NCBI GenBank assembly: GCA_041660065.1
Contig: JBAZXC010000001.1
Coordinates: 200,535-264,534 of the forward strand
Reading direction: 5' to 3'
From: Parcubacteria group bacterium
Lineage (GTDB): Bacteria; Patescibacteriota; Minisyncoccia; Moranbacterales; GCA-2747515
Length of the DNA: 64,000 nucleotides
Made by a program: the position numbers and the translations under genes. This document shows positions 5,194 to 61,105 of this stretch, in pieces (the stretch's first letter is position 1; each line of letters begins with the position of its first letter). Under the pieces are notes generated by a model. The model saw only the letters and a program-made list of their open reading frames with translations, was not told the origin of the DNA and searched no databases.

Positions 5194-6130
5194 TATGACG
5201 CAAAAGATCTCCGTCGTGGTTCCTGCATATAATGAGGAAAAAAATATTCCACTTTTTTATGCACGTTTGAAAAACATTTTCGCAAATGCATCACAGTATG
5301 ATGTGGAAATGATCTTTGTCAATGATGGTAGTCGTGATAAGACATGGCAAGAGATCCAGAAATTGGCACTTAATGATGCGAGCGTGCGCGGTATTTGTTT
5401 TAGTCGTAATTTTGGTCATCAGATTGCACTTACGGCAGGCTATGATATAGCTACCGGTGATGCCATTATTTCTATGGATGCGGACATGCAAGATCCCCCG
5501 GAGCTTATTATGGATATGTTGGTGAAGTGGCATCATGGATGTGAAATTGTATATGCACGAAGACGAAATAGAAAAGATGGTTTTCTCAAAAAATTGACGG
5601 CAAAAATGTATTATGCACTTCTCAACAATGTATCTGATGTGGATATTCCGCGTAATGTGGGTGACTTTCGCCTGATCGATAAAAAGGTTTTGAACGAATT
5701 GAAAAAATGTCGTGAAAAATATCGCTATTTACGTGGTATGGTTGCATGGGTGGGATTTAGAAATTGCTATGTGGACTTTGATCGACCAAACAGGATCAAT
5801 GGAGAAACAGCGTATACATGGAAAAAAATGATCAAATTTGCCATGGATGGTTTTACGGGATTTTCTATGTTTCCGCTCAAAATTGCATCATATGTCGGCG
5901 GTTTTGTGATTATGACGGGATGCATGATGTTCCTTTATGTCGCATATGATTTTCTCATCAAAGACACACCATATCCACTCTATAAATGGTTGGTGATCTT
6001 GGTATACATCTTTATTGGTGTGCAGTTCATCTTGATGTGGCTGATCGGAGAGTACATCGGACGGATCCATGATCAACAAAAAGAGCGACCATTGTATGTA
6101 ATTAGAGAACGATTGAATTATGATGAATAA
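5183..6130 (+). CDS. Polyprenyl-phosphate glycosyltransferase (family 2, GtrB/ArnC/DPM1-like) with two C-terminal transmembrane helices
   Basis: 'ISVVVPAYNEEKNIP', 'FVNDGSRDKTW' and 'MDADMQDPPE' are GT2 polyisoprenyl-phosphate glycosyltransferase motifs. The C-terminal hydrophobic pair is typical of GtrB-type enzymes. Confidence 0.85.
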   Translation: MENNMTQKISVVVPAYNEEKNIPLFYARLKNIFANASQYDVEMIFVNDGSRDKTWQEIQKLALNDASVRGICFSRNFGHQIALTAGYDIATGDAIISMDADMQDPPELIMDMLVKWHHGCEIVYARRRNRKDGFLKKLTAKMYYALLNNVSDVDIPRNVGDFRLIDKKVLNELKKCREKYRYLRGMVAWVGFRNCYVDFDRPNRINGETAYTWKKMIKFAMDGFTGFSMFPLKIASYVGGFVIMTGCMMFLYVAYDFLIKDTPYPLYKWLVILVYIFIGVQFILMWLIGEYIGRIHDQQKERPLYVIRERLNYDE

Positions 6131-6932
6131 TCCACAAGTATCCGTTGTGATGCCAAATTACAATTGTGCCCGTTTTCTTGATGAGGCAATTGACAGTATA
6201 TTGCAACAGACATTTTGTGACTTTGAATTTATCATTATTGATGATGGAAGTACGGACAATTCGTGGGAGATTATTCAAAAATATGCATGTAAAGATGATC
6301 GGATAAGAGCGTTTAAAAATGAAAGAAATCAACACATAGTCTACTGTCGCAATAAAGGAGTTAGCCTTTCAAAGTGTGATCTCATAGCTTTTTTAGATAG
6401 TGATGATATTGCTTTTCCGGAAAGGTTAAAAATCCAAGTTGATTATATGCTCAAAAATCCAGATTGTGGCGTTTGTGGGTCTAACTTTGAGATGATAAAT
6501 GAAAAATCACAGTTGATTGGATACAAAAAATTTCCTGAAAATCATGATGCAATAAAAAAATCATTTTTTTTCTGCAATCCTTTCGGACAAAACACAGTTA
6601 TAGTCAGGAAAAAATGTTTTAATGAGGTTGGATTATATAATGATGAATATCGTAACGCTGAGGATTTGGATATGTGGGTGCGCATTGGAGGCAAATTTAA
6701 ATTACATAACATACAGAAAGATTTGGTAAAGTACAGGGTTCATGCAAAAAATAGTATGTTTACAAGTCAAAAAAGAATGATTAGGAGTACGCTAAAAATC
6801 AGAAAGAAAGCCATTTCAGAATATGGCTACGCGATGACTTTTAAAGGTCAAATTTTTTACTGGGGAACATGGTTGGCTCAATGGCTACCATCAAAATTTG
6901 TTTTTTGGATTTTTAATTTTTTAAAAAGATAA
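6120..6932 (+). CDS. Family 2 glycosyltransferase
   Basis: 'VSVVMPNYNCARFLDEAIDSILQQTFCDFEFIIIDDGSTDNS' is the GT-A N-terminal signature. 'LDSDD' is the DxD motif. The region is noticeably AT-rich. Confidence 0.8.
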   Translation: MMNNPQVSVVMPNYNCARFLDEAIDSILQQTFCDFEFIIIDDGSTDNSWEIIQKYACKDDRIRAFKNERNQHIVYCRNKGVSLSKCDLIAFLDSDDIAFPERLKIQVDYMLKNPDCGVCGSNFEMINEKSQLIGYKKFPENHDAIKKSFFFCNPFGQNTVIVRKKCFNEVGLYNDEYRNAEDLDMWVRIGGKFKLHNIQKDLVKYRVHAKNSMFTSQKRMIRSTLKIRKKAISEYGYAMTFKGQIFYWGTWLAQWLPSKFVFWIFNFLKR

Positions 6933-6979
6933 AATGTTGAAGAAAATTTTGAACAAATGAATCCATATTTTAATTTAAT

Positions 6980-8134
6980 TTGAAATTTATGAAAAAAAAT
7001 AAAGAAAAGGCAGTACTTATATTGGGTAGTTACGGTCATACGAACATTGGTGATGACTTGTTGATGTATAATTACGTATTTTTATTCCGCAATCTTGGAT
7101 TTAAAAAAATTTATACTAATGTAGCTGTTTCGGCTAATGTGCCTGAAGAAATAGCCAAGGTTGTTCACATGAAAGAAACCTATGGAACTTCTTTTTTGGA
7201 TTGGTTAAAAATATTGAAAGAGGTCGATGTTGTTTGTTATGGTGGTGGCACGATCTTAAAAGAACTCTACAGCTCAACTTCAAGATCTCGATATGCAGTG
7301 ATCATCAGGATGATGTTTTTTAATTTTTTTGCAAAGGTTGTGGGGAAGACCATATATAATTTAAACATTGGCATTGGCTCTTTGCAAACTATAGTTGGAA
7401 AATTAATTGTTAAAATATCATTAATATTTTGTGATTTTACGATTTTTCGAGATGCTGATTCATATAATTTTGCAAAGGATGAACTGAAAATTAATATAAA
7501 AAAAATAGGGTTGGGTGAGGATGGTTTATTCATAAATGAAAAATGGCATGACCATCGTGCTGAAAATCTTCCTATGAATGTACCAAATAGGGTTGGGGTC
7601 AATGTTCTTTTTAATATCCCAGATTGGGTTGATAGAGAAAGCTATCTCAAGGAACTAAGAGATTTTGTTAATAATATTTTGGAAAGAGGTTTTTTTGTGG
7701 TGTTTATTCCTTTTCAACACTTACTTGATAAAAATAATGACTTGGTTTTTATTGAGAGAGATATATTACCCTATTTAAAAAACAAAAATTATGAGCTAAT
7801 TCATCATGTGCAGATTGATAAGTTGGCAGAGACTTTAAAAGGACTTGATTTTTTTGTTGGTATGCGATTTCATTCTTTGCTGATGGCCATATCTACAGCG
7901 ACGCCGTTTCTTGCTATAGAATATGATACTAAGTGCTCTAGAATAATTAAAGAATATTCATATCCATATTCAGTGCAAATTGAAAACTTTTCTTGTGATT
8001 TATTGGTAAAGAATTTTGATGCACTGATTTCTAATCGAGAAAAAAATATTGATTTTTTGATTGAATTAGGCAATCGTTTATACGCTAAAGAATTTCAATG
8101 CGAGAAAGACCTGTGGAAAAAATTAGAGAAATAA
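6980..8134 (+). CDS. Polysaccharide pyruvyl transferase family protein (CsaB/WcaK-like)
   Basis: N-terminal 'VLILGSYGHTNIGDDLLM' matches the GxxGxxNxGDxxL signature of PS_pyruv_trans proteins. Length is consistent. Confidence 0.6.
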   Translation: MKFMKKNKEKAVLILGSYGHTNIGDDLLMYNYVFLFRNLGFKKIYTNVAVSANVPEEIAKVVHMKETYGTSFLDWLKILKEVDVVCYGGGTILKELYSSTSRSRYAVIIRMMFFNFFAKVVGKTIYNLNIGIGSLQTIVGKLIVKISLIFCDFTIFRDADSYNFAKDELKINIKKIGLGEDGLFINEKWHDHRAENLPMNVPNRVGVNVLFNIPDWVDRESYLKELRDFVNNILERGFFVVFIPFQHLLDKNNDLVFIERDILPYLKNKNYELIHHVQIDKLAETLKGLDFFVGMRFHSLLMAISTATPFLAIEYDTKCSRIIKEYSYPYSVQIENFSCDLLVKNFDALISNREKNIDFLIELGNRLYAKEFQCEKDLWKKLEK

Positions 8135-10704
8135 AAAAGATAATTACGAACAAATCTTCAGTTTGTCTTATTTTGATCTTCCTTTTCATTTTTGTCGTTC
8201 ATTTATTTATCTTTCGGGATATTGTTATGAATTTACCATCTCTTATGAGTGGTGAATCTGTGATTGTGCGCGAAGAGCTAGTTCCTTTTTTTGATTTTAA
8301 AAGTCAATTTCTTGATCAAATCAAGGGTGGAGAGTCCTATCTCACGATGACAGATGAAATACGAGTAGCATATTCTTTTTGGACGTCGTGGATGAGATAT
8401 TGGATTGTACTTCCTTTTGCTCTCATTATATTGAATAGTATTTCGGCCTTCCTGTTCTTTATCTCTGTGTACATGATTGAAAAGGAGATATTCAAAAAAA
8501 ACTCCAATTTCATCATGACAACTTCTTTCCTGACATCATTTTTTATTTATCTCATATTACTTTATTCAAAGGTAACTCATTTTTATACTTTAATATTTGG
8601 CTTTAGCTTGTTTGCTTTGGCAATCTCTATGACCATCAGAGAATTTTTCTTTCGTGATAAATTTTCTTTGAAATCTTCCATCTGGATTTCGATTTTGGTC
8701 CTTTTTAATCCCGCGATTCATTACCACATTCTTTATTACATTGTTTTTTCTTTGGTTGTGTCGTTTATATTTTTGATGAACGATAATTTCAAGGGAGAGA
8801 CAATTAAGTTTACAAAATATTTTAGTGTATTAATGCTCATCAGTTTGTTTCCATATGTAATATTTATTCTTTATGTGATAAATAATACTGATTCTGATAT
8901 TACTACTTCAATTGCAGTTAATTTCATGTTCATTTTTAATACATCAACATCCTTAACCCATATTTTTTCTTTGGACATAGCTGCCCCAGTTGATATGTTT
9001 TTGCATGGTAAATATCTAACAGATTTGCCACGCTATAGTAAAATACTCTTTTTCTTAATTTTGTTATTACCCCTAGCTTTTACTAGAGAAATAAATTCAC
9101 AAAAATCCAAAAAATTTATTATTTTTTCGTATTTTGTTCTCACTATTGCAATATGGATGTCGATCGGTTATTTGCAGGAATTTTCTTTTCATAGCATAGG
9201 ATCGGATTTTATGATTTATCTATCTCAGTTCTCATCTTGGGGTGTAAATATAGTTAAAAAAATTGTAGGAACAACAATTCAAATATTGAGATTCCCACAT
9301 CGTTTTGAATTTATTTTGTTTTATATAACTCCAATTTTAGCCACATTTTCTTTTGCTTTTTTGAAAAATAAATTTGGCTATGGTTTTGTGATAATCGCAA
9401 TATTTCTCAGTGTAGGAATGCCTTTTATAATTGACGTTGATCATAGAACATTTCTTGCTAGCGGTAATTATGGTGGATTTTTGAGCCCGATGAGGATTCC
9501 ATCAGATTTAAAAAAGATAAAAAGTATTATTCATGAAGATCTTGGCGTAGGATTTATTTTACCAACATTTGAGAGTGGTAGGGATATGCAGATTGATGAT
9601 AAAAATTATAATTTTATTGATAAGTTTTTAATATATTATTTAGATTCCCCAACTTTTTACTATGGAACTGGTGCTAAGACAGAAAATAGGATTAGAGCAT
9701 TCTTGGTTTATCAGGCAATTTTGGATGATTCTACATCTTGGGAGAATGTTTTAAATTCAGGAATGAATGTAAAATATATAATTAATCCACATACAGTATC
9801 TAAAACTTATGGGAATGTTTATTTGCCAGAGATTGATAATAAGTTAGACCAAAAACTTAATGATAGTTTATTATATCAAAGAGTCTATACTGGAGAATAT
9901 TTTGATTTATACAAAAGGAATATTGAAAAAAAATATGACAATAGTATTATGCTGGACGTTTCTTCTGAAAAGATTTTTCAATATTTAAAATTGTCAGAGA
10001 TAGATGAAAATACACTTTATTTTCCTCTTCAAGAAAAAAAATTTCTCCAGGGAGAAAAAGCGAAAATTCTTGTAACAGATAGCTTGGAGAGTTCGTATTA
10101 TAACTTGCTGGTGTTGAAAAATGATTCTATTTCTCATGTGTATCCAGATTCTGATTTGCTACCTTTCACCAAAGGTCTTATGCCGAGTACATTTTATACA
10201 AATATGCCACTTTCTTTGGAAGCTCTTCTGGGTGACAACTCATATAACTTTTTTGGAAGGCCTGTTACGGATATGATTAATCTCAGCTCGCCCCAGTTTA
10301 TTGGCATTGTTGATAAAAATTTTCAAATAAAATTTTCTTTTAAGATTAAAGATGTCGGAAAACATCGGTTGATTTTAAAAGCATCAACATCAGAAAATAA
10401 GATTTTTGTAACTCTATCTGGGAAAGAAGTTGAATTAAAAAGAATGGATCAAAATACAAATGTAAAGAATAAAGAAAATTTTTCATATTTTTATGCAGAT
10501 TATGATTTTGCTACAAAAGGTAACTATTTTCTGGGTGTAAAAAAGGAAAGTGACGATGGCGATCCTCTTCTGGTGGAGTCTCTTTCTGCTGTTCCTCAAT
10601 CATTATTTTATGAAGAAAACGATTCCTGGGTTGGCTCAGAATACCTCAAGCTTATTCGCTCAAATGAATCGGAGGTATATCACGTTGAGATTCATGAAGA
10701 GTAA
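8098..10704 (+). CDS. Large polytopic membrane protein (868 aa), putative GT-C-fold glycosyltransferase/polymerase
   Basis: About 12 predicted transmembrane helices over the first ~450 aa, then a ~400-aa hydrophilic domain. It lies in a GT2/GtrB/flippase context. Very low GC. The start may be internal (37-nt overlap with the upstream gene). Confidence 0.45.
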   Translation: MRERPVEKIREIKKIITNKSSVCLILIFLFIFVVHLFIFRDIVMNLPSLMSGESVIVREELVPFFDFKSQFLDQIKGGESYLTMTDEIRVAYSFWTSWMRYWIVLPFALIILNSISAFLFFISVYMIEKEIFKKNSNFIMTTSFLTSFFIYLILLYSKVTHFYTLIFGFSLFALAISMTIREFFFRDKFSLKSSIWISILVLFNPAIHYHILYYIVFSLVVSFIFLMNDNFKGETIKFTKYFSVLMLISLFPYVIFILYVINNTDSDITTSIAVNFMFIFNTSTSLTHIFSLDIAAPVDMFLHGKYLTDLPRYSKILFFLILLLPLAFTREINSQKSKKFIIFSYFVLTIAIWMSIGYLQEFSFHSIGSDFMIYLSQFSSWGVNIVKKIVGTTIQILRFPHRFEFILFYITPILATFSFAFLKNKFGYGFVIIAIFLSVGMPFIIDVDHRTFLASGNYGGFLSPMRIPSDLKKIKSIIHEDLGVGFILPTFESGRDMQIDDKNYNFIDKFLIYYLDSPTFYYGTGAKTENRIRAFLVYQAILDDSTSWENVLNSGMNVKYIINPHTVSKTYGNVYLPEIDNKLDQKLNDSLLYQRVYTGEYFDLYKRNIEKKYDNSIMLDVSSEKIFQYLKLSEIDENTLYFPLQEKKFLQGEKAKILVTDSLESSYYNLLVLKNDSISHVYPDSDLLPFTKGLMPSTFYTNMPLSLEALLGDNSYNFFGRPVTDMINLSSPQFIGIVDKNFQIKFSFKIKDVGKHRLILKASTSENKIFVTLSGKEVELKRMDQNTNVKNKENFSYFYADYDFATKGNYFLGVKKESDDGDPLLVESLSAVPQSLFYEENDSWVGSEYLKLIRSNESEVYHVEIHEE

Positions 10705-10719
10705 ATTTGTATAAAAAAT

Positions 10720-11583
10720 ATGGATCAAGTAAAAAATAAGAATATTTTTAGTAGCATAGGAAAAAATATCGTCAGGATTTTTGTTAAAGTTCTTTCTGAT
10801 TTTTTTGAGAAAAAAAGTAGAAGTGCGCTTCTTCTTGTTTTAGCATTTTTAATTTTTTGGAATCTAGGTTTTGTTGCCAGTCTGAACTGGATTGTATTTT
10901 TGGCCTTTCTTTTCTATGGATGGGAAAATAAAATTCTTGGCATCGGGGCTTTGATCTTTTTGAGTGTTTGTTTTACGCTTCTCTTTTTTCAACAAGATGC
11001 TTTTGCTGAAATCGCAGCTACGCAAGCATATTTTCTAATAGTCATGACCGTGGTTTTGCAAATAGTGGATTTTAAAAAAGAAAAAAAGATTGCATATCAG
11101 GAAGATGTGAATAGGGTAGAGGAGGTATTTAAAAGTTCTCATATAAAAAAAGAGGATGGGGAATGGGTTTTTGAAGGGGCTGTGGAGATACTGAGCGAAG
11201 AAGAAAAGCGTATGAAAAGAAAGAAAATGATGTATATATTACTCATATCTTTTCTATTTCTTGAGATTGCGGTGGTGTTTTTCAATTGGTCATTGATAGT
11301 GATTGTTTTTTGGATCATATGTGCTATAGCTGTAATTTTTCCAAAAAACGTAATAAAGTTTTTATTTTCCACAAGTATCTTTTTCTGTATTTTGGCTGTC
11401 ATCTCTATTATTTTTTCGCAAAAAGATTTGGCCACGGCATCGTATTTTGGGATACTTTTTGTTTTTGCATTTATCGCTGTGATTGTGAGTTTGCGGGTCT
11501 TTGGGAGGAAAGCGCCAAATTCTCCGAGAAAATGGGTGAGAAGTTTTTCGTACTTGCATAAAAATAAGAAATCAGATGAATAA
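10720..11583 (+). CDS. Hypothetical integral membrane protein
   Basis: Multiple hydrophobic helices and a K/E-rich loop. No motifs recognised. Part of the same co-directional low-GC cluster. Confidence 0.4.
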   Translation: MDQVKNKNIFSSIGKNIVRIFVKVLSDFFEKKSRSALLLVLAFLIFWNLGFVASLNWIVFLAFLFYGWENKILGIGALIFLSVCFTLLFFQQDAFAEIAATQAYFLIVMTVVLQIVDFKKEKKIAYQEDVNRVEEVFKSSHIKKEDGEWVFEGAVEILSEEEKRMKRKKMMYILLISFLFLEIAVVFFNWSLIVIVFWIICAIAVIFPKNVIKFLFSTSIFFCILAVISIIFSQKDLATASYFGILFVFAFIAVIVSLRVFGRKAPNSPRKWVRSFSYLHKNKKSDE

Positions 11584-32841: not shown

Positions 32842-33036
32842 TTGATCTTTTTTGAAAAACGTCCAGTTGGTTAAATACCGATTGGACGTTTTTATTTCTT
32901 TATGACAGTGTGGAATTACAAAAGAGGGAAGGGATCGTGAAATTTTCTTCAAAAATGGTGTCTACCATGATGTGATCACCTTCGGCCTCCTGCAACGAGA
33001 ATATCTGAAGAAATAATTATTTCACATTTAAAAAAA

Positions 33037-33076
33037 GACCTGTGAGTGAAACATTCGCAGGTCTTTTCTTTTTTGT
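33037..33076. terminator. Bidirectional hairpin terminator
   Basis: aaaaaaagacctgtgagtgaaacattcgcaggtcttttctttttt, with a T/A run on both sides. Confidence 0.6.
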
Positions 33077-33112
33077 CATTCACTATGCACAGGGAAGAGA
33101 TCTTTCAATTCC

Positions 33113-33466
33113 CTAGTTTACTTTACGAAAACTCACTGTGTATATCGGTTCATATAATGCATCATACTCATCGCGCACCTCCACGGTTTCCCCATCCATC
33201 ATCGTCGAGAGGGAAATGTCAGAGATCATTTCTTGTAATGCCTTTACTTCGCCTTTTAATTCCTCCATGCGTTCCCATCGTGAACCCATGTCACGCTGTG
33301 CACTGAGCTCATGCTGTTTTTTGATCTCTCTGATGTCATTTGCTTTCTCAAGAACTGTTTGGTATTCGGCATCTTGTGCGAGGACATCTTTGAATTCTTT
33401 ACGGATTTCCTTCATTTCTTTTTTGATGCTCTGAAATTCACTGAATACTTCTTGGACATCTTTCAT
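33113..33466 (-). CDS. Hypothetical coiled-coil protein (117 aa)
   Basis: Highly charged heptad-like sequence (KEMKEIRKEFKDVLAQDAEYQTVLEKANDIREIKKQHE...). Has its own minus-strand promoter TTGTCA-17-TAGAAT. Confidence 0.45.
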   Translation of the reverse strand: MKDVQEVFSEFQSIKKEMKEIRKEFKDVLAQDAEYQTVLEKANDIREIKKQHELSAQRDMGSRWERMEELKGEVKALQEMISDISLSTMMDGETVEVRDEYDALYEPIYTVSFRKVN

Positions 33467-33624
33467 GATATTTTTTGTTTAATTGATTAGTATAAAACAG
33501 AGCTAATTCTATCATAAATTTCACAAATTGACAAAATGTTACTTTTGTACTATAATAGGCGCTACAGTATAAATTTCCCGTTCTTTTCTTATCTTAATTT
33601 TTGCCAAAAAGGAGAGCAAAATTT

Positions 33625-34110
33625 ATGAAAAAAATCAGCGTAGTATCATTTCTTGTTTTGATGTTTTTCTTTTTTTTGAAAGCATCATCCAGCTTCGCCG
33701 TGCAAGAGATCGTTTCCACATGCAAGGACGGCAATTTGTCTGTGTATGTAACATATCCCGTAATTGACACCGTTGGTCCGGGGTTTGGTTCGCAAGCTGT
33801 GGATCGCCCACAACAGCTAGGCACTGTTGTACGTCATGCATGTTATGATCCGGCAGAAAAACGAATCACAGCATGGCGTCAAGGCAAATACGGCGTTCAC
33901 GCACATTATGGCGGGGATGAAGAGGAGCTACCGGAGATTCTCTCCGCGAAGTATGGCATCAATGCCAAGAAAGATCACATTGTTTTTGAAACAAAAACAG
34001 TGATCAGTCTCCCGGAAGGGAAGGTGGTCTCTTCGGAAGACCTCCAACTCTATTATTTTGAAAAAGAAAACAAGAACAAGATCAAGATAATAGCACTTAC
34101 AATACGCTAA
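33625..34110 (+). CDS. Hypothetical secreted protein
   Basis: RBS aaaaggagag. Signal peptide MKKISVVSFLVLMFFFFLKASSSFA. Terminator aactgttcggttcacaatgtgatcgaacagtt at ~34128-34175. The track ORF starts at 33601. Confidence 0.5.
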   Translation: MKKISVVSFLVLMFFFFLKASSSFAVQEIVSTCKDGNLSVYVTYPVIDTVGPGFGSQAVDRPQQLGTVVRHACYDPAEKRITAWRQGKYGVHAHYGGDEEELPEILSAKYGINAKKDHIVFETKTVISLPEGKVVSSEDLQLYYFEKENKNKIKIIALTIR

Positions 34111-34175
34111 AAATTTTTTTTTGCATAAAACTGTTCGGTTCACAATGTGATCGAACAGTTTTTCTTTTTTCAAAT

Positions 34176-35377
34176 TTCTTGGTGGCACAGTCACCAGACA
34201 GACTTTATGTCGCACAATGTAGAGCATCTATTTTGGATTTGTAGAAGGGAATTTCTATGTGTGATGTGTAAAAATTTTCGTGTCAGTAATTTATTATGAG
34301 AAAATTATCTTTCTGCTATGCAAATAATATCCTCTTGTCTTTTTATTTTTAGATTTTTTTATAATTTATATTTATAAAATAATTTTACAAATATAAAATA
34401 TTCACGCATGTAAGTAAATAATAATATTTATTATAATGCACGGGATAAAAATATTATTGGAAAAATTTAGCATGAAGAAAAAAGCAAAGATTAGGCCGGA
34501 GAGATTCAATATGTGTTATTCTATGTAAAATAGCATATAAACATACAATATATAGATATAATAGATAGTATAAATATGATTACATACCGCATGGTGTGCT
34601 TTACTGGAATCTCCCGTGGTATGTACATATCACTCGCTCTATGTCGCACAATGAAGAGTCAGCTTTTTGCGAGAGGAGAGGAGTGATATTGGATTATAAA
34701 CAATGCAGGACATACAATATCATATGCCTATAGATTATATAGACATGATGGGTGCATGATTTCGGTCATGATAACCATCGACCTGCGAGATCTTTCAAAA
34801 CCATATAGTATACTTATGGTAAAAATATATGAAATCAAGAGCGGATAGTTATAATCAAGGAGGTTTTGTAAATTTGTTGTATGGAAAGAGAATAGTATGA
34901 TCATTAGCGTAATGATGGCATCATAGCTTTGATGTGTGCGATTTTAATATAATAAAGGAAACTAGTAACATTGATACGAATATGATGCTATGTCGCATAA
35001 TATACATTGTGCGACGTAGTATATAGAAAGACCCTATTTGGACAATCCTCCTCCAATACCTCAGTGAACGATCAGACTTTGTAATATTTTTTATAAAAGA
35101 TTTATTTATGCAGATTTCCTCACTCTTTCTCTGCCTCTGCGGTGTGATGAACATCATAAAACAAAAAGGAGATTATTATCCCCCTACCGCATGCAATTTA
35201 TTTTAGACAATGTATTTATTGCATGCGTTATGATGTTTTACTTTTCAAAAGAGTTTGTTGTGTGGTTGTCTTTTTTTGTTATAGTACATTTTTGATTCAA
35301 AAGAGTATACATATCATACCCATTAATTAATTTAAAACTCCCCTTCCCTTCAAAAAAGTTATCCACAGTTGTCAAAT
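34176..35377. other. 1.2-kb AT-rich non-coding island with iterated GTCGCACAATG motif and one perfect DnaA box
   Basis: No ORF >80 codons with coding character. Motif TATGTCGCACAATG at 34205-34218 and 34640-34653, and an imperfect palindromic pair at 34989-35015. TTATCCACA at 35359-35367. Confidence 0.6.
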
Positions 35378-35426
35378 ATCAAAAACCGTCAAAGGGTCAT
35401 GACGGTTTTTTGGTGAAATTTTTTGG

Positions 35427-36146
35427 TCAGTTATTTTTGATCAATGTTCCTTCAAATTTTTCTCCGTTAAGATATGCGCGTATATTATCAAAATTTGTCC
35501 CCTTTAATGTCACCGCTTCCAAATCTTCCTTTTCTGCAAATTTTGCTGCGACAGGATCAAATGGTGCATTCATGCCAGGTATCCAGACGTCGGTTGTCAT
35601 TTCGCGATATTGTGCCCAAGACATCTCCTCGATCTTTTGGGCATCAGGAAATTCCTTGGGGTCTTTATCATAGACATAATCAATGTTGGAAAGGTTAACA
35701 ACTTTTTTGATCCCGAGATATCGTGCAAGAAGAGCGGAATCATAATCTGTGGAAAATCCCGGCTTCCATCCTGCGGCGATCATGACCGATTGGGTACATT
35801 GATGAAAGTCTTCCAGATCATGGGGATTGGTATTGATACGCGGATGTGCCACATCGCGAAATATTGTGCGAATGAGATGGGCGTTTAAACGTGTGGAATG
35901 AATGCCCAACCAATCCTTATCTTCGTCGTTCACATCTTGCAATATCTCTTGTGCCGCTTGCGCATAGCGACGTGCCGTCTTGCCTCCTCCGGTGATAAAA
36001 ACAAAACGTTGCTGTTGTTCGGTAATTTGCTGCATAATCAGAGCGCGAAAGTCTTTCAAAAATTCTATATTGATATCATCAGGAACGATCAAAGATCCGC
36101 CAAGGTTCACAATAAAGGTTTTTTTTGCATCCATATTTTTTTGCAT
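35427..36146 (-). CDS. pyrH: UMP kinase, archaeal-type (amino-acid-kinase family)
   Basis: 'KKTFIVNLGGSLIVPDD', 'FVFITGGGKTARRY', 'HSTRLNAHL', 'AGWKPGFSTDYDSALLA' closely parallel archaeal-type UMPK. In-frame ATGs at 36146 or 36134. The longer track ORF (to 36350) overlaps the upstream gene and is unlikely to be translated. Confidence 0.75.
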   Translation of the reverse strand: MQKNMDAKKTFIVNLGGSLIVPDDINIEFLKDFRALIMQQITEQQQRFVFITGGGKTARRYAQAAQEILQDVNDEDKDWLGIHSTRLNAHLIRTIFRDVAHPRINTNPHDLEDFHQCTQSVMIAAGWKPGFSTDYDSALLARYLGIKKVVNLSNIDYVYDKDPKEFPDAQKIEEMSWAQYREMTTDVWIPGMNAPFDPVAAKFAEKEDLEAVTLKGTNFDNIRAYLNGEKFEGTLIKNN

Positions 36147-36180
36147 TATTTTATTATTTTTTATAAATTTTGTGTCATTA

Positions 36181-36573
36181 TTATTTGCATGAGGTTGACT
36201 TGGTGTATCCTTTTTCAATAGCATTTTGATCGGAACGGAAACACCGCAGATTCTCGGGGTCGATCTTTGTAGCATAGGAACAATCCGGCGGATAATATTT
36301 TGTACCCTTGACACTTCCGACATAGACACAATCTTCGGGGCGCATGGCATTTGTTGAATCAGAGGAGTTTTTTTTCACAATGATCGGGTCTTGTGTGGCA
36401 CGGAAAACCGTTATGGGCCGTTGAGCTGTTTGTGCTCCGGTAAACCACCCGAAAACATAGCACAATAAACCAACGACAACCATACCACTTATTGTCATAA
36501 TAGCACTTTCATGGTCAAAAAACCATGTGCGGATCTTTTGGAGATATTTTCTCATAATCATTGACAATCTCAA
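36181..36573 (-). CDS. Hypothetical membrane-anchored protein with a C-terminal Cys-containing domain
   Basis: Transmembrane segment (IMTISGMVVVGLLCYVFGWF), then 'CVYVGSVKGTKYYPPDCSYATKIDPENLRCFRSDQNAIEKGY...C'. Co-oriented with and upstream of pyrH. Confidence 0.45.
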   Translation of the reverse strand: MRLSMIMRKYLQKIRTWFFDHESAIMTISGMVVVGLLCYVFGWFTGAQTAQRPITVFRATQDPIIVKKNSSDSTNAMRPEDCVYVGSVKGTKYYPPDCSYATKIDPENLRCFRSDQNAIEKGYTKSTSCK

Positions 36574-36656
36574 CCTTCTCGATTATACTAGCATAGTATA
36601 TAAATTTGTAAAAGACGGGAAATTCCCTTTTACTTTTAATCGTATAATATTCAATT

Positions 36657-36935
36657 ATGGCACATAGAAAAGCCGGCGGTTCCACAAGACTTGGCCGTGA
36701 TTCAGAATCTAAACGTCTTGGAGTAAAGATCTATGGCTCACAAAAAGTTAGTGCGGGCAATGTGATCGTGCGTCAACGTGGCACAAAAATTCATCCGGGA
36801 GAAAACGTTGCCCGTGGTGAAGATGATACTATTTATGCAAAGAAATCCGGCATAGTTAAATTCATCGACAAAAAAGTTAAGGATTTTACCGGAAAACTCA
36901 AAAAGAGAAAATTCGTCAGTGTTGTGACAAAATAG
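36657..36935 (+). CDS. rpmA: 50S ribosomal protein L27
   Basis: '[24 protein letters not shown]...[16 protein letters not shown]' is nearly identical in pattern to bacterial L27. Terminator at 36957-36989. Confidence 0.95.
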
Positions 36936-36986
36936 TAACGATCAAAATCTTTCAAAAATACCCTGCCGGAATTGGCAGGGTATTTT

Positions 36987-38486
36987 TTATTTGGGTGTTA
37001 TTTTTTTGATACGAGAACGAATGGCACCTTCTTGTCGTCCAAATATCTTCGCAATCGTTTTGATACTTTGGTGTTTTTTGATACATGCTAAAAGTCTCTT
37101 ATCATCTTCCGGTTTCCATGGTTTACCTGCGTGAGGATACATATTTTGTGAATTTTGATGTGATTTTTTCTCTGATGAAGATGTGATTTTTTTATCCGGT
37201 TTCGCATGTATTAAAACTTTTTTCTTTTTCATCTCTTCCTGTTCAAGGGTGGCAGAAATATTTTGAAAAACATGGTCTTTTTTGAAAATGGTAGGATCGA
37301 CTTGCAGAGCAATATCATTTATACCCAAGAGCGTAATATCTCGTAATGTGCGTACACGAGAAAGAGCTACATAACCCATACCGTACTCAAAACACTTTTT
37401 CAGGTCAATCTCTGCAGCATCAAGCGTCATACCTTGGCTTTTGTGTATTGTGATCGCCCATGCTAAGCGTAGAGGCAGTTGTTTGATTTGTGCTAGTTCC
37501 TCGCCATCTTCTTCAATGAGCCATTTTTCCGGGGAGACCCTGATCTCTTCTCCGTGTAAAGTTTTTACAATCGGAAAACGATCCTCATCAAAATCAATGA
37601 CTGTGCCAATCGTACCATTGACATATCCTTGATCGAAATTATTGCGCACAAACATCACAAGTGCGCCTTTTTTGAGAATGAGCTCTTCCGGAGCGAGGCA
37701 TCCATTTTTGATCGCCTCGACTAATTTTTCATTACCATCCGATACCATCCGATACAAAAAGGACTTTTCTTTGATTTTATGCAATTCGTGATTATTTACC
37801 CTATCAACATCAATATTGTGCGTAAAAAGTTTCGTGCGTTCTTGGGCGCTATCTATTTTTTGATTAGTGGCTTTTTTGAGCAAAAGGTGTGTTTTTTCTG
37901 TTACACACTTCCCTCTTATATCAGACAAGACACGCGAGAGAGCATCTTCTTTTTGTCGATATTGCTCTGATAAGTAACAAACTTTTAAATCCATTTCTTT
38001 CCAGCTCTGTGATTGATCGATGAATTGTACGGTCGTCCCGGCGTTTTTTCGTACAGGAGGCAATTGAAAAAAATCACCAGACAAAATGATCTGCATGCCT
38101 CCGAATGATTTTACATTTTCCCGTGCACTGCGTAAGATTTTATTGATCAGATCGATCTGGTACGCATGTAGCATGGAAATCTCATCAATGATGAGCACGT
38201 CAGTCTTTGTGAGACGCTTGTGCACAAGGGGATTTCTGATGATCTTTTTTATTTCTTTTTCGCTCAGATCTTCTTTTATGCCAATGCCCGACCATGAGTG
38301 GATCGTACGACCACCAATATGTGTTGCGGCAATACCTGTAGAAGCTGTAACGGCATAGGAAATGCGGTTTTGTTTTAAATAACCAATGTATGCATTAAGC
38401 AAAAATGTTTTGCCACTGCCTGCCGGTCCAGTTAAAAAGACATTATGCCCTCTTTTCAATATATTCAATGCAAGATCCTGTTTCAT
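36987..38486 (-). CDS. Pif1/RecD-family (SF1B) DNA helicase with C-terminal HTH-like tail
   Basis: Walker A 'FLTGPAGSGKTFLL', 'VLIIDEISML', 'LSGDFFQLPPV', and 'AITIHKSQGMTLD' (UvrD_C_2-like). C-terminal basic helix 'SIKTIAKIFGRQEGAIRSRIKKI'. Confidence 0.75.
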   Translation of the reverse strand: MKQDLALNILKRGHNVFLTGPAGSGKTFLLNAYIGYLKQNRISYAVTASTGIAATHIGGRTIHSWSGIGIKEDLSEKEIKKIIRNPLVHKRLTKTDVLIIDEISMLHAYQIDLINKILRSARENVKSFGGMQIILSGDFFQLPPVRKNAGTTVQFIDQSQSWKEMDLKVCYLSEQYRQKEDALSRVLSDIRGKCVTEKTHLLLKKATNQKIDSAQERTKLFTHNIDVDRVNNHELHKIKEKSFLYRMVSDGNEKLVEAIKNGCLAPEELILKKGALVMFVRNNFDQGYVNGTIGTVIDFDEDRFPIVKTLHGEEIRVSPEKWLIEEDGEELAQIKQLPLRLAWAITIHKSQGMTLDAAEIDLKKCFEYGMGYVALSRVRTLRDITLLGINDIALQVDPTIFKKDHVFQNISATLEQEEMKKKKVLIHAKPDKKITSSSEKKSHQNSQNMYPHAGKPWKPEDDKRLLACIKKHQSIKTIAKIFGRQEGAIRSRIKKITPK

Positions 38487-38568
38487 ATAATGTAAAAATG
38501 CGGGCAGTAGTGGTGCAATGGCAAAAACCCTGTGTCATTATCGAATGCATACCCTTTTTAATTGACGT

Positions 38569-40215
38569 TTATTTTTTATTTTTTGCTGCTTTGACGAAAG
38601 CCATGAAAAGCGGATGTGGTCGTAATGGTGCGGATTGAAATTCCGGATGGAATTGCGTAGCAACAAAAAACGGATGTACAGACTGGGGCAGTTCCATGAT
38701 CTCCATAAGGATCCCATCTGGTGATGTAGCAGGAAAAATAATTCCTGCATCGATCAATCGTGGGACATACGCAGGATTTACCTCATAGCGATGTCGGTGT
38801 CTTTCACTGATCTCTTTGGATTTGTATGCTCTGTATGCGATTGTGGATTTATTTTTGATGATCGCAGGATATGCACCGAGTCGATTAGAGCCACCAAAAT
38901 CTTTTTTGAGAAGTTTTTTCTTTTGTTCAGGCATAATATCGATCACGAGATCTTTTGCTTGAGGATTGATCTCTGCCGTATGAGCATCCTTCAGTCCAAG
39001 AACGTGGCGTGCATATTCGATCACTGCGATCTGCATGCCATAACACAATCCAAAATAAGGGATTTTATTCTCACGACAATACTGTGCAACGCTGATCTTC
39101 CCTTCTATGCCACGCGAGCCATAGCCACCAGGCACAACGATGCCATCATAATTTTTGAGTTGCTGAAGAAGTTCCGGGGTTTTTTCATATGCGGTACTGT
39201 CGAGCCACGCCAATTCCGGTTTGCAACCATTGTGGATGGCTGCATGCTTGATCGCTTCAATTACACTGATATAGGCGTCAGAAAGCACAAAATCACCGGT
39301 TTCAAAATACTTGCCCACAATGCCGATTTTTACAGGTTTTTTTGCACTTTCGATTTTTTGTACAAATGTGTTCCATTCCTTCATATCCGTTTTGCGCGGT
39401 GTGAGGCCGAGTTTTTTCAAAACGATGCTACTGAGATTATCTTTTTCAAAATTGATCGGCACATGATAAATACTTTCAACATCCGGCGCACTGATCACAC
39501 TTTTTTTATCCACGCTACAACTCATGGCGATCTTTTCTTTTCGTTTGTCATCAAGTGGCACTTCAGATCGTGCTACGATGATATCCGGTTGGATGCCGGC
39601 ACCATTCAAAGTGCGTGCTGCGTATTGAGTTGGTTTTGTCTTCATCTCCCCAACCTTGCTTGGTAGCGGGACATAACTTACCAACACAAAAAGAACATCG
39701 CGAGGATATTTCAGTTTCATCATGCGTGCCGCTTCCAGGAACAAAATATTTTGATATTCACCAATCGTACCGCCAATTTCCGTGATAATGATTTCGGCAT
39801 TTTCCCTTTTGGCTGCTTTTTCTATGCGGTCAATGATCTCTAATGGAATATGCGGTACAACCTCAACACATTTGCCGTGATAGTCGCCACGACGCTCACG
39901 TTCAATCACGGACTGATATACACGCCCTGTGGTCATATAGTTGGTACGAGGTAAAGATATGCCCAAAAAACGTTCATAATTCCCCATATCTTGATCGGTT
40001 TCATCACCATCTGCAAGTACAAATACCTCGCCATGCTCTGTGGGATTCATTGTCCCGGCATCAACATTGATATAGGGATCAACCTTTAGTGCTGTCACCG
40101 AAAAACCACGTGATTGCACGATTTTGGCGATTGAAGATGCTGTGATTCCTTTCCCTACGCCACTCATTACACCGCCTACGACAAAAATATATTTCTTTCT
40201 ATTTTTTTTCTTCAT
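38569..40215 (-). CDS. pyrG: CTP synthase
   Basis: 'YIFVVGGVMSGVGKGITASSIAKI', 'TALKVDPYINVDAGTMNPTEHGEVFV', and the glutamine amidotransferase domain 'GLCYGMQIAVIEYAR'. Start taken at MKKKNRKKYIF; the track ORF extends to 40335. Confidence 0.92.
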   Translation of the reverse strand: MKKKNRKKYIFVVGGVMSGVGKGITASSIAKIVQSRGFSVTALKVDPYINVDAGTMNPTEHGEVFVLADGDETDQDMGNYERFLGISLPRTNYMTTGRVYQSVIERERRGDYHGKCVEVVPHIPLEIIDRIEKAAKRENAEIIITEIGGTIGEYQNILFLEAARMMKLKYPRDVLFVLVSYVPLPSKVGEMKTKPTQYAARTLNGAGIQPDIIVARSEVPLDDKRKEKIAMSCSVDKKSVISAPDVESIYHVPINFEKDNLSSIVLKKLGLTPRKTDMKEWNTFVQKIESAKKPVKIGIVGKYFETGDFVLSDAYISVIEAIKHAAIHNGCKPELAWLDSTAYEKTPELLQQLKNYDGIVVPGGYGSRGIEGKISVAQYCRENKIPYFGLCYGMQIAVIEYARHVLGLKDAHTAEINPQAKDLVIDIMPEQKKKLLKKDFGGSNRLGAYPAIIKNKSTIAYRAYKSKEISERHRHRYEVNPAYVPRLIDAGIIFPATSPDGILMEIMELPQSVHPFFVATQFHPEFQSAPLRPHPLFMAFVKAAKNKK

Positions 40216-51093: not shown

Positions 51094-51516
51094 CTAAAAA
51101 AGTTTCTGCACCGATGCATCAAGTGCGTGATTTACCAATGAATCAGCAACCGTGTTTTGCGCACGTGGCACGTGATGGAATGTTACCGCACCAAAATCAA
51201 GCACGCCGTTCCACACAGTGATAAAATACTTTTGCATAGTGGGTTTGGTGATCTTGTATTCATGACGCAATTGCTTTACGACCAATTCGCTATCCAATCT
51301 GCAGATGACATGCGTATTTTTTGCCTTTTGCGATCCGAGAAGCGCTTTGCATTTTTTGAGTGCAAAGATCAATGCCTGATATTCCGCATCGTTATTAGTT
51401 GCATCTCCAATCGTTTCACCATAACGCTTATCATACGTTTTGATCCACACACCAATTGCCGCCGGTCCTGGATTTCCCCGTGAACCACCGTCCGTGTATA
51501 CAATAATCTCTTCCAT
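51094..51516 (-). CDS. rnhA: Ribonuclease HI
   Basis: 'IIVYTDGGSRGNPGPAAIG', 'EYQALIFALK', 'HVPRAQNTVADSLVN'. Confidence 0.9.
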   Translation of the reverse strand: MEEIIVYTDGGSRGNPGPAAIGVWIKTYDKRYGETIGDATNNDAEYQALIFALKKCKALLGSQKAKNTHVICRLDSELVVKQLRHEYKITKPTMQKYFITVWNGVLDFGAVTFHHVPRAQNTVADSLVNHALDASVQKLF

Positions 51517-59196: not shown

Positions 59197-59721
59197 CTAT
59201 GACTCATCCATACATCGCGCTTTTTGCATCAATTCCGGTGCGCAATATTTCTTTGCACAACTAAGTTTCCCATCATCGCTCACTGTACATGTATTACATC
59301 CGTCAAACCATGTCTTGCATCCCGGCATGACAGCATTTCCATTGCCATCTGTGATCACAGGCTCGTCTGCCGTCATATTTTGTTGTGTACATATGATATT
59401 TTTGCCATCGGACTCCATCATGAGAGTGGCTTCTCCTTGGTGTGTCCAAAACGTTACCACGCCATCGGAATACTTTGCACCGGATGCCGACATAACCAAT
59501 GGAAGGATCACGTTTTCATGCACTTTGCCTGTAAAAAAGAGTTGTGCTGTTTGAGGCTCCACAGCATTATTGAAGTCAACTTTTACCTCCTGACTCTGAC
59601 AATTATAGATCACTGCCATATCACTTGGTTCGCTCGTCACTTGTTCTTTTGTTGTATCCTTTTGTACGCTGCAACCAGCGAGAAGGATCACTGCGCCCAT
59701 TATCCAAAAAATCTTTTTCAT
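59197..59721 (-). CDS. Lipoprotein with MliC-like (lysozyme-inhibitor fold) domain and a C-terminal Cys-rich module
   Basis: Lipobox LLAGCS. 'SGAKYSDGVVTFWTHQGEATL' resembles the MliC family core. C-terminal 'GCKTWFDGCNTCTVSDDGKLSCAKKYC'. Confidence 0.5.
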   Translation of the reverse strand: MKKIFWIMGAVILLAGCSVQKDTTKEQVTSEPSDMAVIYNCQSQEVKVDFNNAVEPQTAQLFFTGKVHENVILPLVMSASGAKYSDGVVTFWTHQGEATLMMESDGKNIICTQQNMTADEPVITDGNGNAVMPGCKTWFDGCNTCTVSDDGKLSCAKKYCAPELMQKARCMDES

Positions 59722-59836
59722 ACCGTCTTGTCATGTAAATAATTATCCTCACACCCCCGTACCGTTCATGATAGATGAGCCTACTAAAAAATCAAGCGAG
59801 TTATCCACAGATGACATTTTGTGCTAAAATTCGACT

Positions 59837-61105
59837 ATGCATAAAAATAACGATCAGTATGATGTCATCGTAATCGGTGGCGGACCATCTGGCATGATGT
59901 GTGCCGGACGCGCAGCACAATTAGGTGCACGCGTTTTGCTCGTGGAAAAAAACGCCACACTCGGCAACAAACTCCTCTTGACCGGTGGTGGCCGATGCAA
60001 TATCACCAATGCAATCTTTGATACTACTGCCTTTCTCAATAATTTTTCTGAAAACAAGAAATATCTTCATTCCCCATTTGCACAGTTTGGCGTACAAGAT
60101 ACATTTGATTTTTTTGCCGCACATGATCTGCCACTTGTCGTAGAAGCACGCAATCGCGCCTTCCCCAAAACACAGCGAGCACAGGACGTTTTGACTGTTC
60201 TAATTGATTATATGAAAAAAGGCGGCGTCACAATACACACCAATACACGCATCACGTCTCTCCATCATGAAAATCAAACGATCATTTCTCTACGCGATCA
60301 CAGCAACAAAGAATACTTTGCAAAAAGATTTGTGATCGCGACCGGCGGGCTTGCCGCACCGGAAACAGGGTCAACGGGAGATGGCATGACATTTCTCAAC
60401 GCACTCGGACACACAACACAAAAATCCAATCCCAATCTCGTACCACTCAAAACTCCATCAAAATGGATTCATAACCTTTCCGGCATTTCGTGGTCATTTA
60501 TGAAAATCCGTTTTATCCAAAACGGCAAAACATGTATCCGCAAAACAGGAAAAATCCTTTTTACACACTTTGGCATATCGGGGCCGTTAGTGATCAATAG
60601 CGCATATGAGGTCAAGAAATTGCTCGAAAAAGGTCCTGTGGAGGCCGTGATCGATCTTTTCCCCGATACAGAAGAATCTGAGTTGGATCGCAAAATACTC
60701 AAACTCCTCACACAAAATGGAGACAAAAAATTAAAGAACATCCTCCCTGATATGATCTTTAAAAAAATCGCCCATGAAATTCTCGACCTCCCGCACGTGC
60801 AATTGTCTGAAAAATTCGCAAAAGACATCACACGTGAGGAAAGAAAAAACCTCGTTCACACGATCAAAAATCTCACCTTTCCCATCACTGGCACGTGTGG
60901 CATGGACAAGGCGATCGTTGCTGATGGCGGCGTCGTGCCTTCGGAAATCGATTTTACCACAATGACATCTCGCCTCTATCCCAACCTGTCAATCCTTGGT
61001 GATGTGATCAACATCAATCGTCCGTCCGGTGGCTTTTCACTACAGTTATGCTGGACAACCGGTTTTGTCGCCGGGACACATATTGCATCCTCACTCAAAA
61101 AATAA
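59837..61105 (+). CDS. FAD-dependent oxidoreductase of the HI0933/YhiN (NAD(P)/FAD-dependent) family
   Basis: 'YDVIVIGGGPSGMMCAGRAA' Rossmann motif. 'LLLTGGGRCNITN' is the hallmark of the HI0933 family. 'IATGG'. A TTATCCACA DnaA-box-like 9-mer lies at 59801-59809 upstream. Confidence 0.85.
   Translation: MHKNNDQYDVIVIGGGPSGMMCAGRAAQLGARVLLVEKNATLGNKLLLTGGGRCNITNAIFDTTAFLNNFSENKKYLHSPFAQFGVQDTFDFFAAHDLPLVVEARNRAFPKTQRAQDVLTVLIDYMKKGGVTIHTNTRITSLHHENQTIISLRDHSNKEYFAKRFVIATGGLAAPETGSTGDGMTFLNALGHTTQKSNPNLVPLKTPSKWIHNLSGISWSFMKIRFIQNGKTCIRKTGKILFTHFGISGPLVINSAYEVKKLLEKGPVEAVIDLFPDTEESELDRKILKLLTQNGDKKLKNILPDMIFKKIAHEILDLPHVQLSEKFAKDITREERKNLVHTIKNLTFPITGTCGMDKAIVADGGVVPSEIDFTTMTSRLYPNLSILGDVININRPSGGFSLQLCWTTGFVAGTHIASSLKK

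Follow-up and report, generated by a model that had tools for sequence, protein, structure and literature searches.

A 1316-bp non-coding island in a 64-kb stretch of DNA from a Parcubacteria group bacterium (contig JBAZXC010000001.1; the whole 64,000-nucleotide stretch is called the window here) is very probably the replication-terminus region of a Candidatus Moraniibacteriota chromosome, and a 28-bp sequence at 34990-35017 its dif site. The closest public genomes carry the label Candidatus Moraniibacteriota, a lineage of the candidate phyla radiation (CPR, or Patescibacteria). A preliminary description of the same DNA had proposed a replication origin, or an iteron region of the plasmid or phage type. 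It was apparently right to see iterated protein-binding motifs at a replication landmark, but that landmark appears to be the terminus and not the origin. The site and its parts are as follows.

34990-35017, minus strand: full dif-like site, 28 bp in an 11-6-11 layout, reading ACGTCGCACAA-TGTATA-TTATGCGACAT on the minus strand.
34990-35000, plus coordinates: arm, ATGTCGCATAA.
35001-35006, plus coordinates: centre, TATACA.
35007-35017, plus coordinates: arm, TTGTGCGACGT.

A replication terminus is marked by a maximum of the cumulative GC skew together with converging genes, and an origin shows the opposite. Within the window, long open reading frames (ORFs) all lie on the plus strand from 1 to 34110 and nearly all on the minus strand from 35427 to ~59 kb, and the GC skew is positive to the left of the island and negative to the right. 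Cumulative G-C stands at 1966 at the site, on a plateau (34936-39099) that peaks at 1977 before it declines; a GC-skew analysis had been put forward as the check on an origin, and over the 64-kb window it gives a maximum at the island and no minimum. Because the skew flips from positive to negative where the genes converge, we read the island as the terminus. Its neighbours are housekeeping genes (CTP synthase, L9, L27, GalU, SecA, SecDF, GltX and PheST), and the molecule is therefore a chromosome, not a plasmid.

The site is not peculiar to the window. It is present, in one copy apiece, in at least 120 metagenome contigs that match a 24-nt degenerate pattern, and these were reduced to 119 non-redundant loci. 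The skew to the left minus the skew to the right is above zero at the site in 29/30 loci with enough flank (p=6e-8), and the genes there are convergent in 24/30 loci and divergent in one. Only 22/119 loci have a neighbouring gene in common with the window. A natural control is provided by one locus (L005) that has kept the kinase gene next to the island but lacks the site; there the genes and the positive skew run on without a switch. The site therefore keeps to the point of convergence and is not tied to any one gene.

Even with up to 8 mismatches allowed, the site occurs once in the window. The imperfect palindrome that had been reported here is real, and its exact limits are 34990-35017. 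Its arms are complementary at 9/11 positions and share their outer bases, and 5/6 pairs in positions 7-12/17-22 match, which passes the dif rule of Kono et al. (PMC3025954). Seven related genomes, with a kinase gene 72-93% identical, also carry the site a few hundred bp downstream of that gene, with the consensus A[C/T]GTCGCACAA-TGTA[T/C][A/C]-TTAT[G/A]CGACAT. Relative to the closest relative (L002), coding DNA is ~75% identical and the site 97% over 35 nt; the only alignable parts of the spacer are the site and one repeat copy (33 nt, 91%). No strain closer than this one was found by exact-protein look-ups, which matched only the same contig. Across the 119 loci, conservation ends at the 28-bp limits, in lineages whose ribosomal proteins are only 30-70% identical. 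In related genomes the site is thus conserved in non-coding DNA with changing neighbours, as is used to recognise dif.

G-rich words converge on the site from both chromosome arms. An unbiased 8-mer scan of the flanks of the 119 loci returned GGGAAGTG, AGGGAAGT and AGGGGAGT as the top words on the top strand to the left of the site (up to 20 loci vs 0.75 expected) and the reverse complements ACTCCCCT and CACTTCCC to the right (23 loci vs 1.4 expected). In the window the word GGG[AG]AG[TG] occurs 8 times on the plus strand and never on the minus strand to the left of the site, and 8 times on the minus strand and never on the plus strand to the right. Its polarity inverts at the site, and its density rises several-fold within 600 bp. 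The counts for pooled loci and the nearest copies in the window are as follows.

Far left of the site, pooled loci: GGG[AG]AG[TG] 91 times on the plus strand, 17 on the minus strand.
Far right of the site, pooled loci: GGG[AG]AG[TG] 10 times on the plus strand, 66 on the minus strand.
35018-35426, unstranded: non-coding spacer from the dif-like site to the kinase gene, containing the words below, a DnaA box and the hairpin of the kinase gene.
35337-35348, minus strand: two overlapping words (GGGAAGG and GGGGAGT within AAGGGAAGGGGAGTT), the nearest copies, which point to the site from the right-hand arm.

The far-field polarity was at first set aside as proof, as base composition and co-oriented genes confound it. 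However, AGGGGAG is distributed 114:4, as against 68% expected from base composition, and merely 15% of word occurrences stand at positions resembling ribosome-binding sites. Within genes oriented against their chromosome arm, the words still point to the site (26:9, 41:7 and 25:6). Because this last test held, we accept that the polarity follows the arm: the words follow the chromosome arm and not the coding strand, like the FtsK-orienting polar sequences (KOPS). In E. coli, KOPS are words of the form GGGNAGGG that steer FtsK to dif (PMC5357621).

In 25 lineages the distance between the end of a GGG[AG]AG[TG] word and the CACAA-type arm of the site is exactly 20-24 nt. Word and site together make an extended composite of ~55 bp, on one side only (for example in L058, L036, L052, L064 and L141). 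This phased copy is absent from the window itself.

A further companion of the site is a DnaA box, which had been reported from the window and is indeed perfect.

35359-35367, plus strand: DnaA box TTATCCACA in the context AAGTTATCCACAG, separated from the KOPS-like words by ~10 nt and from the dif-like site by 342 nt.

The box is the only one in the island, even with one mismatch allowed, and it recurs at the same relative place in three relatives (L002, L004 and L008) as well as in three further synteny groups. The site-bearing loci, 865 kb in all, contain 33 exact boxes, of which 22 lie within 1.5 kb of the site; 14 stand on a single strand no more than 500 bp away, across the site from the one-arm copies described below, vs ~1.2 expected. 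The unbiased 8-mer scan also returned TGTGGATA (15 loci vs 2.0 expected, p ~2e-9). We narrowed the spread of the box from "14 lineages" to four synteny groups, since the 14 loci comprise the window family, a group in which YebC, RuvC and membrane-protein genes precede the site, and two singletons; within the window family only 4 of ~10 members have it. The enrichment near the site rules out chance. The box is a non-random companion of dif and not an origin element.

Three DnaA-box-like words also stand on the plus strand within 110 bp at 59700-59809 (TTATCCAAA at 59700, TTATCCTCA at 59743 and an exact TTATCCACA at 59801). They lie in and beside a 115-bp gap between divergent genes for an MliC-like lipoprotein (59197-59721, minus strand) and an HI0933-like flavoprotein (59837-61105, plus strand). 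The context of the exact box (AGTTATCCACAG) is that of the box near the dif-like site, and the start codon follows ~27 nt further on. As there is no skew change at this place, it is probably a DnaA-regulated promoter and not an origin.

The island itself is bounded by the end of a 161-aa gene on the plus strand (34110) and the end of the kinase-like gene on the minus strand (35427). It is by far the largest spacer among gene calls on the same contig, where others measure 35-272 bp. The bracketing terminators that had been proposed are present.

34127-34162, plus strand: terminator-like hairpin belonging to the 161-aa gene, which ends at 34110 and is the final gene on the left chromosome arm.
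35387-35415: terminator-like hairpin of the kinase gene.

An AT content of 75-80% had been given for the segment as a whole; the core at 34280-34600 reaches 78%, but the whole segment has 69% (GC 0.309). The absence of a credible ORF was borne out, as an independent gene caller made no call between 34110 and 35427 on the identical public contig, and none of the 32 ORF pieces of at least 25 aa had a translated match in ~150 loci compared, related loci included. A hidden gene is ruled out on these grounds, and a structured RNA because no Rfam family reached its gathering score in the scan of 33000-36500.

The preliminary description had counted four copies of a core motif in the island. Three are exact copies of GTCGCACAATG, at 34209 (plus), 34643 (plus) and 35005 (minus), and these are the only exact copies in the window; the fourth is the variant arm of the palindrome, GTCGCATAA. 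With one mismatch allowed, the window holds 7 matches vs 1.74 expected, a number reached in 0/100 shuffles. The two direct copies, correctly reported as 20/22 identical over 22 nt (34203-34224 and 34637-34658), each contain one arm of a dif-like site and part of a centre, and divide the left part of the island into two intervals.

34207-34223, plus strand: distal one-arm copy, with arm ATGTCGCACAA (34207-34217), centre-like TGTAGA (34218-34223) and no second arm; it lies in the conserved block 34203-34224 and is followed by a T-run and the G-rich word AGGGAAT (34246-34252).
34224-34640, unstranded: Module B, AT-rich non-coding stretch from the distal to the inner one-arm copy, GC 0.25.
34641-34657, plus strand: inner one-arm copy, with arm ATGTCGCACAA (34641-34651), centre-like TGAAGA (34652-34657) and no second arm; it lies in the conserved block 34637-34658 and is followed by a T-run and GGAGAGGAG at 34675-34683.
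34658-34989, unstranded: Module A, non-coding stretch from the inner one-arm copy to the full site, GC 0.33.

One-arm copies share a common layout of arm, centre, T-run and polar word. They read TTTAT-GTCGCACAA-TGTAGA from the good arm, and a G-rich word that points to the full site follows 25-45 nt further on. They are strongly one-sided: across the 119 loci, arm 9-mers of the form GTCGCAYAA occur ~36 times at +50..+1000 from the site, twice at -1000..0, and 5 times in the 349 kb beyond. Members of the window family have 2, 2, 2, 2, 2, 1, 1, 1 and 1 copies, at these offsets from the full site:

Window: 364 and 798.
L002: 379 and 869.
L047: 382 and 832.
L089: 279 and 657.
L003: 298 and 573.
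L004, L008, L009 and L150: a single one-arm copy each.

The one-arm copies may be hybrid junctions left by successive Xer-mediated insertions at dif, a reading that we hold to have an even chance of being correct. Small elements would have carried an attachment site with one strong and one weak arm. Each insertion would rebuild one full dif and leave a dead, non-recombining junction, so that the insert is locked in, and the polar word after each junction would point on to the functional site and keep convergence on one place. The suggestion comes from the layout, in which a full site at one end is preceded by a one-sided array of defective direct repeats. The inserts are bounded by direct dif-like repeats, one intact and one defective, as are the junctions of integrative mobile elements exploiting Xer (IMEX). 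The earlier alternative of a degraded integrated element partly fits, in that it suits the one-arm copies.

Several observations weigh against relics. The inserts measure just 349 and 434 bp, encode no gene and match no known element. Module B contains neither a conserved ORF nor an Rfam family and is similar to none of ~150 loci. When the DNA between copies is compared with the same interval in relatives, a faint residual similarity is seen (z ~3-4 against shuffles), and beyond this the inter-site stretches showed no homology to relatives, among themselves or to phage contigs. The one-arm copies are near-identical in relatives whose spacer is otherwise unalignable, with similar number and spacing; the distal copy, for instance, retains 33-41 nt of similarity to its counterparts in L002, L047 and L082 within DNA that cannot otherwise be aligned. 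Functionless relics should not keep sequence, number and spacing, and the relic reading is weakened for this reason; such conservation implies selection on the one-arm copies or repeated turnover. Furthermore, the good arm is of the CACAA+TGTA type, where a simple relic model predicts the CATAA type of the full site's facing side, and extra arms face the opposite way in other lineages.

Nine loci from lineages unrelated to the window (L045, L051, L056, L092, L096, L104, L124, L128 and L147) have an extra arm copy GTCGCACAATAT at +250 to +970 from the site. These copies lie on the same side of the site as those of the window family but in the opposite orientation, for which a simple insertion-junction model does not account. 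On the other side of the full site in the window, TTTATTTTAGACAATGTA at 35197-35214 matches the one-arm repeat at 14/18 positions and could be a fourth, decayed copy; it was not counted, as 14/18 is about what chance gives in 1.3 kb of AT-rich DNA.

Alternatively, the one-arm copies could be selected accessory sites that help to build or restrict the synapse, as at plasmid cer/psi, or that stop or park the translocase. We consider this unlikely. In its favour, a 14-nt unit (TTTATGTCGCACAA) is nearly invariant in the window, L002, L047, L089, L003, L009 and L150, and the DNA between is unalignable; relatives have copies in similar number and at similar spacing, confined to one side, and the copies have in common an outer TTT flank that is missing from the full site. 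However, spacing (180-970 bp), number (0-2) and orientation differ between lineages, ~3/4 of lineages have no copy within 1 kb, and no such arms are described for Xer systems in the literature consulted (PMC5357621).

Viral elements that carry a mimic of the site (an attP) exist, as they do for IMEX, although their host is assigned from the shared site alone. Two IMG/VR contigs carry the full 28-bp site close to terminase genes (L030 10391-10418 and L029 73-100), and both are tailed-phage-like, with a large terminase, a major head protein and an HNH endonuclease. In L030 the site lies in a non-coding stretch of ~1.3 kb that is flanked on either side by phage-like genes, and a G-rich word 27 nt from it points away, the reverse of the chromosomal arrangement. 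After integration of an element of this type, that word would point to the rebuilt dif. We regard both as candidate temperate phages of CPR bacteria that integrate by way of the host Xer machinery. A 14-mer scan of viral contigs mostly gave chance matches, but ~13 further contigs, with ~0.3 expected by chance, have a perfect arm and centre with a weakened but recognisable second arm.

In the mechanism that we infer for the site, two protomers of an Xer-family tyrosine recombinase would bind its near-identical arms, and strand exchange across the 6-bp centre between sister copies would resolve chromosome dimers at division. An FtsK-type translocase that reads GGG[AG]AG[TG] would be steered to the site from both chromosome arms. 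Because the arms share their outer bases, a single recombinase probably binds both. Xer-family recombinases are encoded in three site-bearing loci of other lineages. They score equally as XerC and XerD, at ~250 bits and below both cut-offs, and one of the three passes the archaeal XerA cut-off (228.5 vs 220 bits). In a second synteny group (L147, L104, L100 and L109), genes for a YebC-like protein, the Holliday-junction resolvase RuvC and a 264-272-aa membrane protein precede the site, and an xer-like gene lies ~5 kb from it (L147 10466-11425; also in L111 and L149). In the window's own family no xer gene lies within 25-35 kb of the site. The window encodes no tyrosine recombinase and none could be tied to this genome, which counts against a dif site here, as does the lack of FtsK in the window and in the site-bearing loci examined; ftsK is present in one CPR bacterium, TM7x (PMC10768705).

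Two other points tell against the identification of terminus and dif. The skew covers the 64-kb window, too short a stretch to place the site opposite an origin. With dif seed sequences taken from PMC3025954, the site is the window's best match to both E. coli dif (20/28) and B. subtilis dif (19/28), but the best match of shuffled windows to E. coli dif reaches 21/28, so 20/28 is not significant. Likeness to E. coli dif was dropped as stand-alone proof, as shuffles score equally. The case for dif rests on context.

Three other accounts of the 28-bp site or of the island have to be weighed on the same evidence. That the site is primarily the attB of a phage or integrative element with its own integrase, and not a dimer-resolution site, could be argued from the phage-like contigs that carry the same sequence. 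We judge this very unlikely. The site occurs once in each lineage examined, insert or not, at the switch of skew and gene orientation and with converging words; its 11-6-11 layout and inner bases are those of dif, and no integrase was seen beside the phage sites in the stretches of L029 and L030 examined. Known elements that exploit dif mimic it in the same manner (PMC9765430, PMC5357621).

An operator array for an unknown transcription regulator would explain a repeated, partly palindromic motif in a long intergenic region, but the two flanking genes converge on the island and finish there, each with a terminator, which leaves a regulator no promoter to act on, and the site stays at the convergence point in lineages with unrelated neighbours; this account is highly improbable. 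Extremely improbable, to our minds, is the replication origin or plasmid- or phage-type iteron region of the preliminary description. AT-rich non-coding DNA, a repeated motif and one perfect DnaA box conserved in relatives are what an origin might offer. Yet the skew is at its maximum and not its minimum, genes converge instead of diverging, the box stands singly and not in a cluster, and no dnaA, dnaN or rep was seen among the window ORFs scanned. The repeats, 434 and 349 bp apart, are also unlike iterons, and the polar words point to the site.

As a dif site, the sequence can be compared with known systems. It resembles E. coli dif, with its XerCD recombinases and FtsK-KOPS system, in its 28 bp, 11-bp arms and 6-bp centre, with TGTATA and the inner arm bases identical (20/28). 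Both lie at the shift point of the GC skew, with converging G-rich words, such as GGGNAGGG in E. coli, that are denser nearby (PMC3025954, PMC5357621). Unlike the XerC and XerD arms of E. coli, the arms here are near-identical, outer bases included (9/11), and the recombinases of related loci are not assignable to XerC or XerD. A polar word at a fixed 20-24 nt from one arm, as found here in 25 lineages, is a further difference. All the features by which Legionella dif, the site of XerL, was recognised are found here: ~30 bp, low GC, partly palindromic, near the cumulative skew maximum, non-coding and with varying flanking genes (PMC9765430).

The near-symmetric arms suggest one recombinase, as in the single-recombinase systems XerS/difSL, XerH/difH and archaeal XerA/dif. 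A further likeness is the partial linkage of recombinase and site (~5 kb) in one synteny group, together with the XerA model cut-off that was passed once. However, difSL has 31 bp with an 11-bp centre, and the arms of difH (AGTTATGAAAA) are also unlike those of the site here (PMC5357621).

For the one-arm copies, the closest parallels are elements that exploit Xer. When LME-1 integrates in Legionella, one dif copy stays intact and the other is altered, and the insert is stabilised in this way (PMC9765430). LME-1 is large and carries genes, whereas the inserts here are geneless and measure 349 and 434 bp; its altered dif has three substitutions, whereas the altered copies here lack a whole arm. 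In Vibrio cholerae, the IMEX TLCphi, CTXphi and VGJphi integrate at dif1 by way of the host Xer recombinases (PMC5357621, PMC6744903), and the attP of TLCphi has one good and one divergent arm (PMC5357621). Repeated integration there builds an array that extends to one side only and has the functional dif as its end (PMC5357621, PMC6744903), a layout also seen here. The V. cholerae elements are filamentous phages or satellites with genes, whereas the chromosomal modules here are non-coding and the only candidate mobile partners are the tailed-phage-like contigs with the site near terminase genes. A polar word beside the attachment site is likewise not described for IMEX in the literature consulted.

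Other features of the window lie outside the island. The kinase-like gene (35427-36143, minus strand) has an amino-acid-kinase fold; it passes the archaeal-type UMP kinase model TIGR02076 (184 vs a cut-off of 158 bits) and scores just 39 bits on the bacterial PyrH model. A Pif1/RecD2-family helicase is encoded at 36987-38486 (minus strand), 2 kb from the terminus site, in a position that is kept in relatives, and a small RNase H-like protein is encoded further out on the same arm (51094-51516, minus strand). A low-GC stretch at 6000-11000 (28-32% vs 41% overall) encodes two family-2 glycosyltransferases, a polysaccharide pyruvyl transferase and an 868-aa protein without a family match, and is possibly a horizontally acquired surface-polysaccharide cluster.

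Speculatively, a large group of CPR bacteria might share a composite terminus module: a symmetric-arm dif served by a single recombinase, a phased KOPS-like word, maintained one-arm sites, a DnaA box that ties DnaA to the terminus, and tailed phages that mimic the site with a reversed word. The whole of this assembly is possible but rather doubtful. The one-arm sites in it would serve for accessory or locking functions, or else would be the ends of an array of miniature non-coding cassettes inserted by Xer.

In the literature searched, there is no dif site, no polar FtsK-orienting words and no Xer-exploiting elements for Patescibacteria/CPR. The conserved one-arm copies, the phased polar word in many lineages and the companion DnaA box go beyond the textbook picture, and each is testable. 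The 28-bp sequence can serve as a terminus marker for checking and orienting CPR genome assemblies, and it would also be useful for estimating replication rates from coverage and for linking phage contigs that carry a mimic of the site to CPR hosts. The full site, the one-arm copies and the phased word provide defined substrates for tests of dimer resolution in ultra-small, largely uncultured bacteria.

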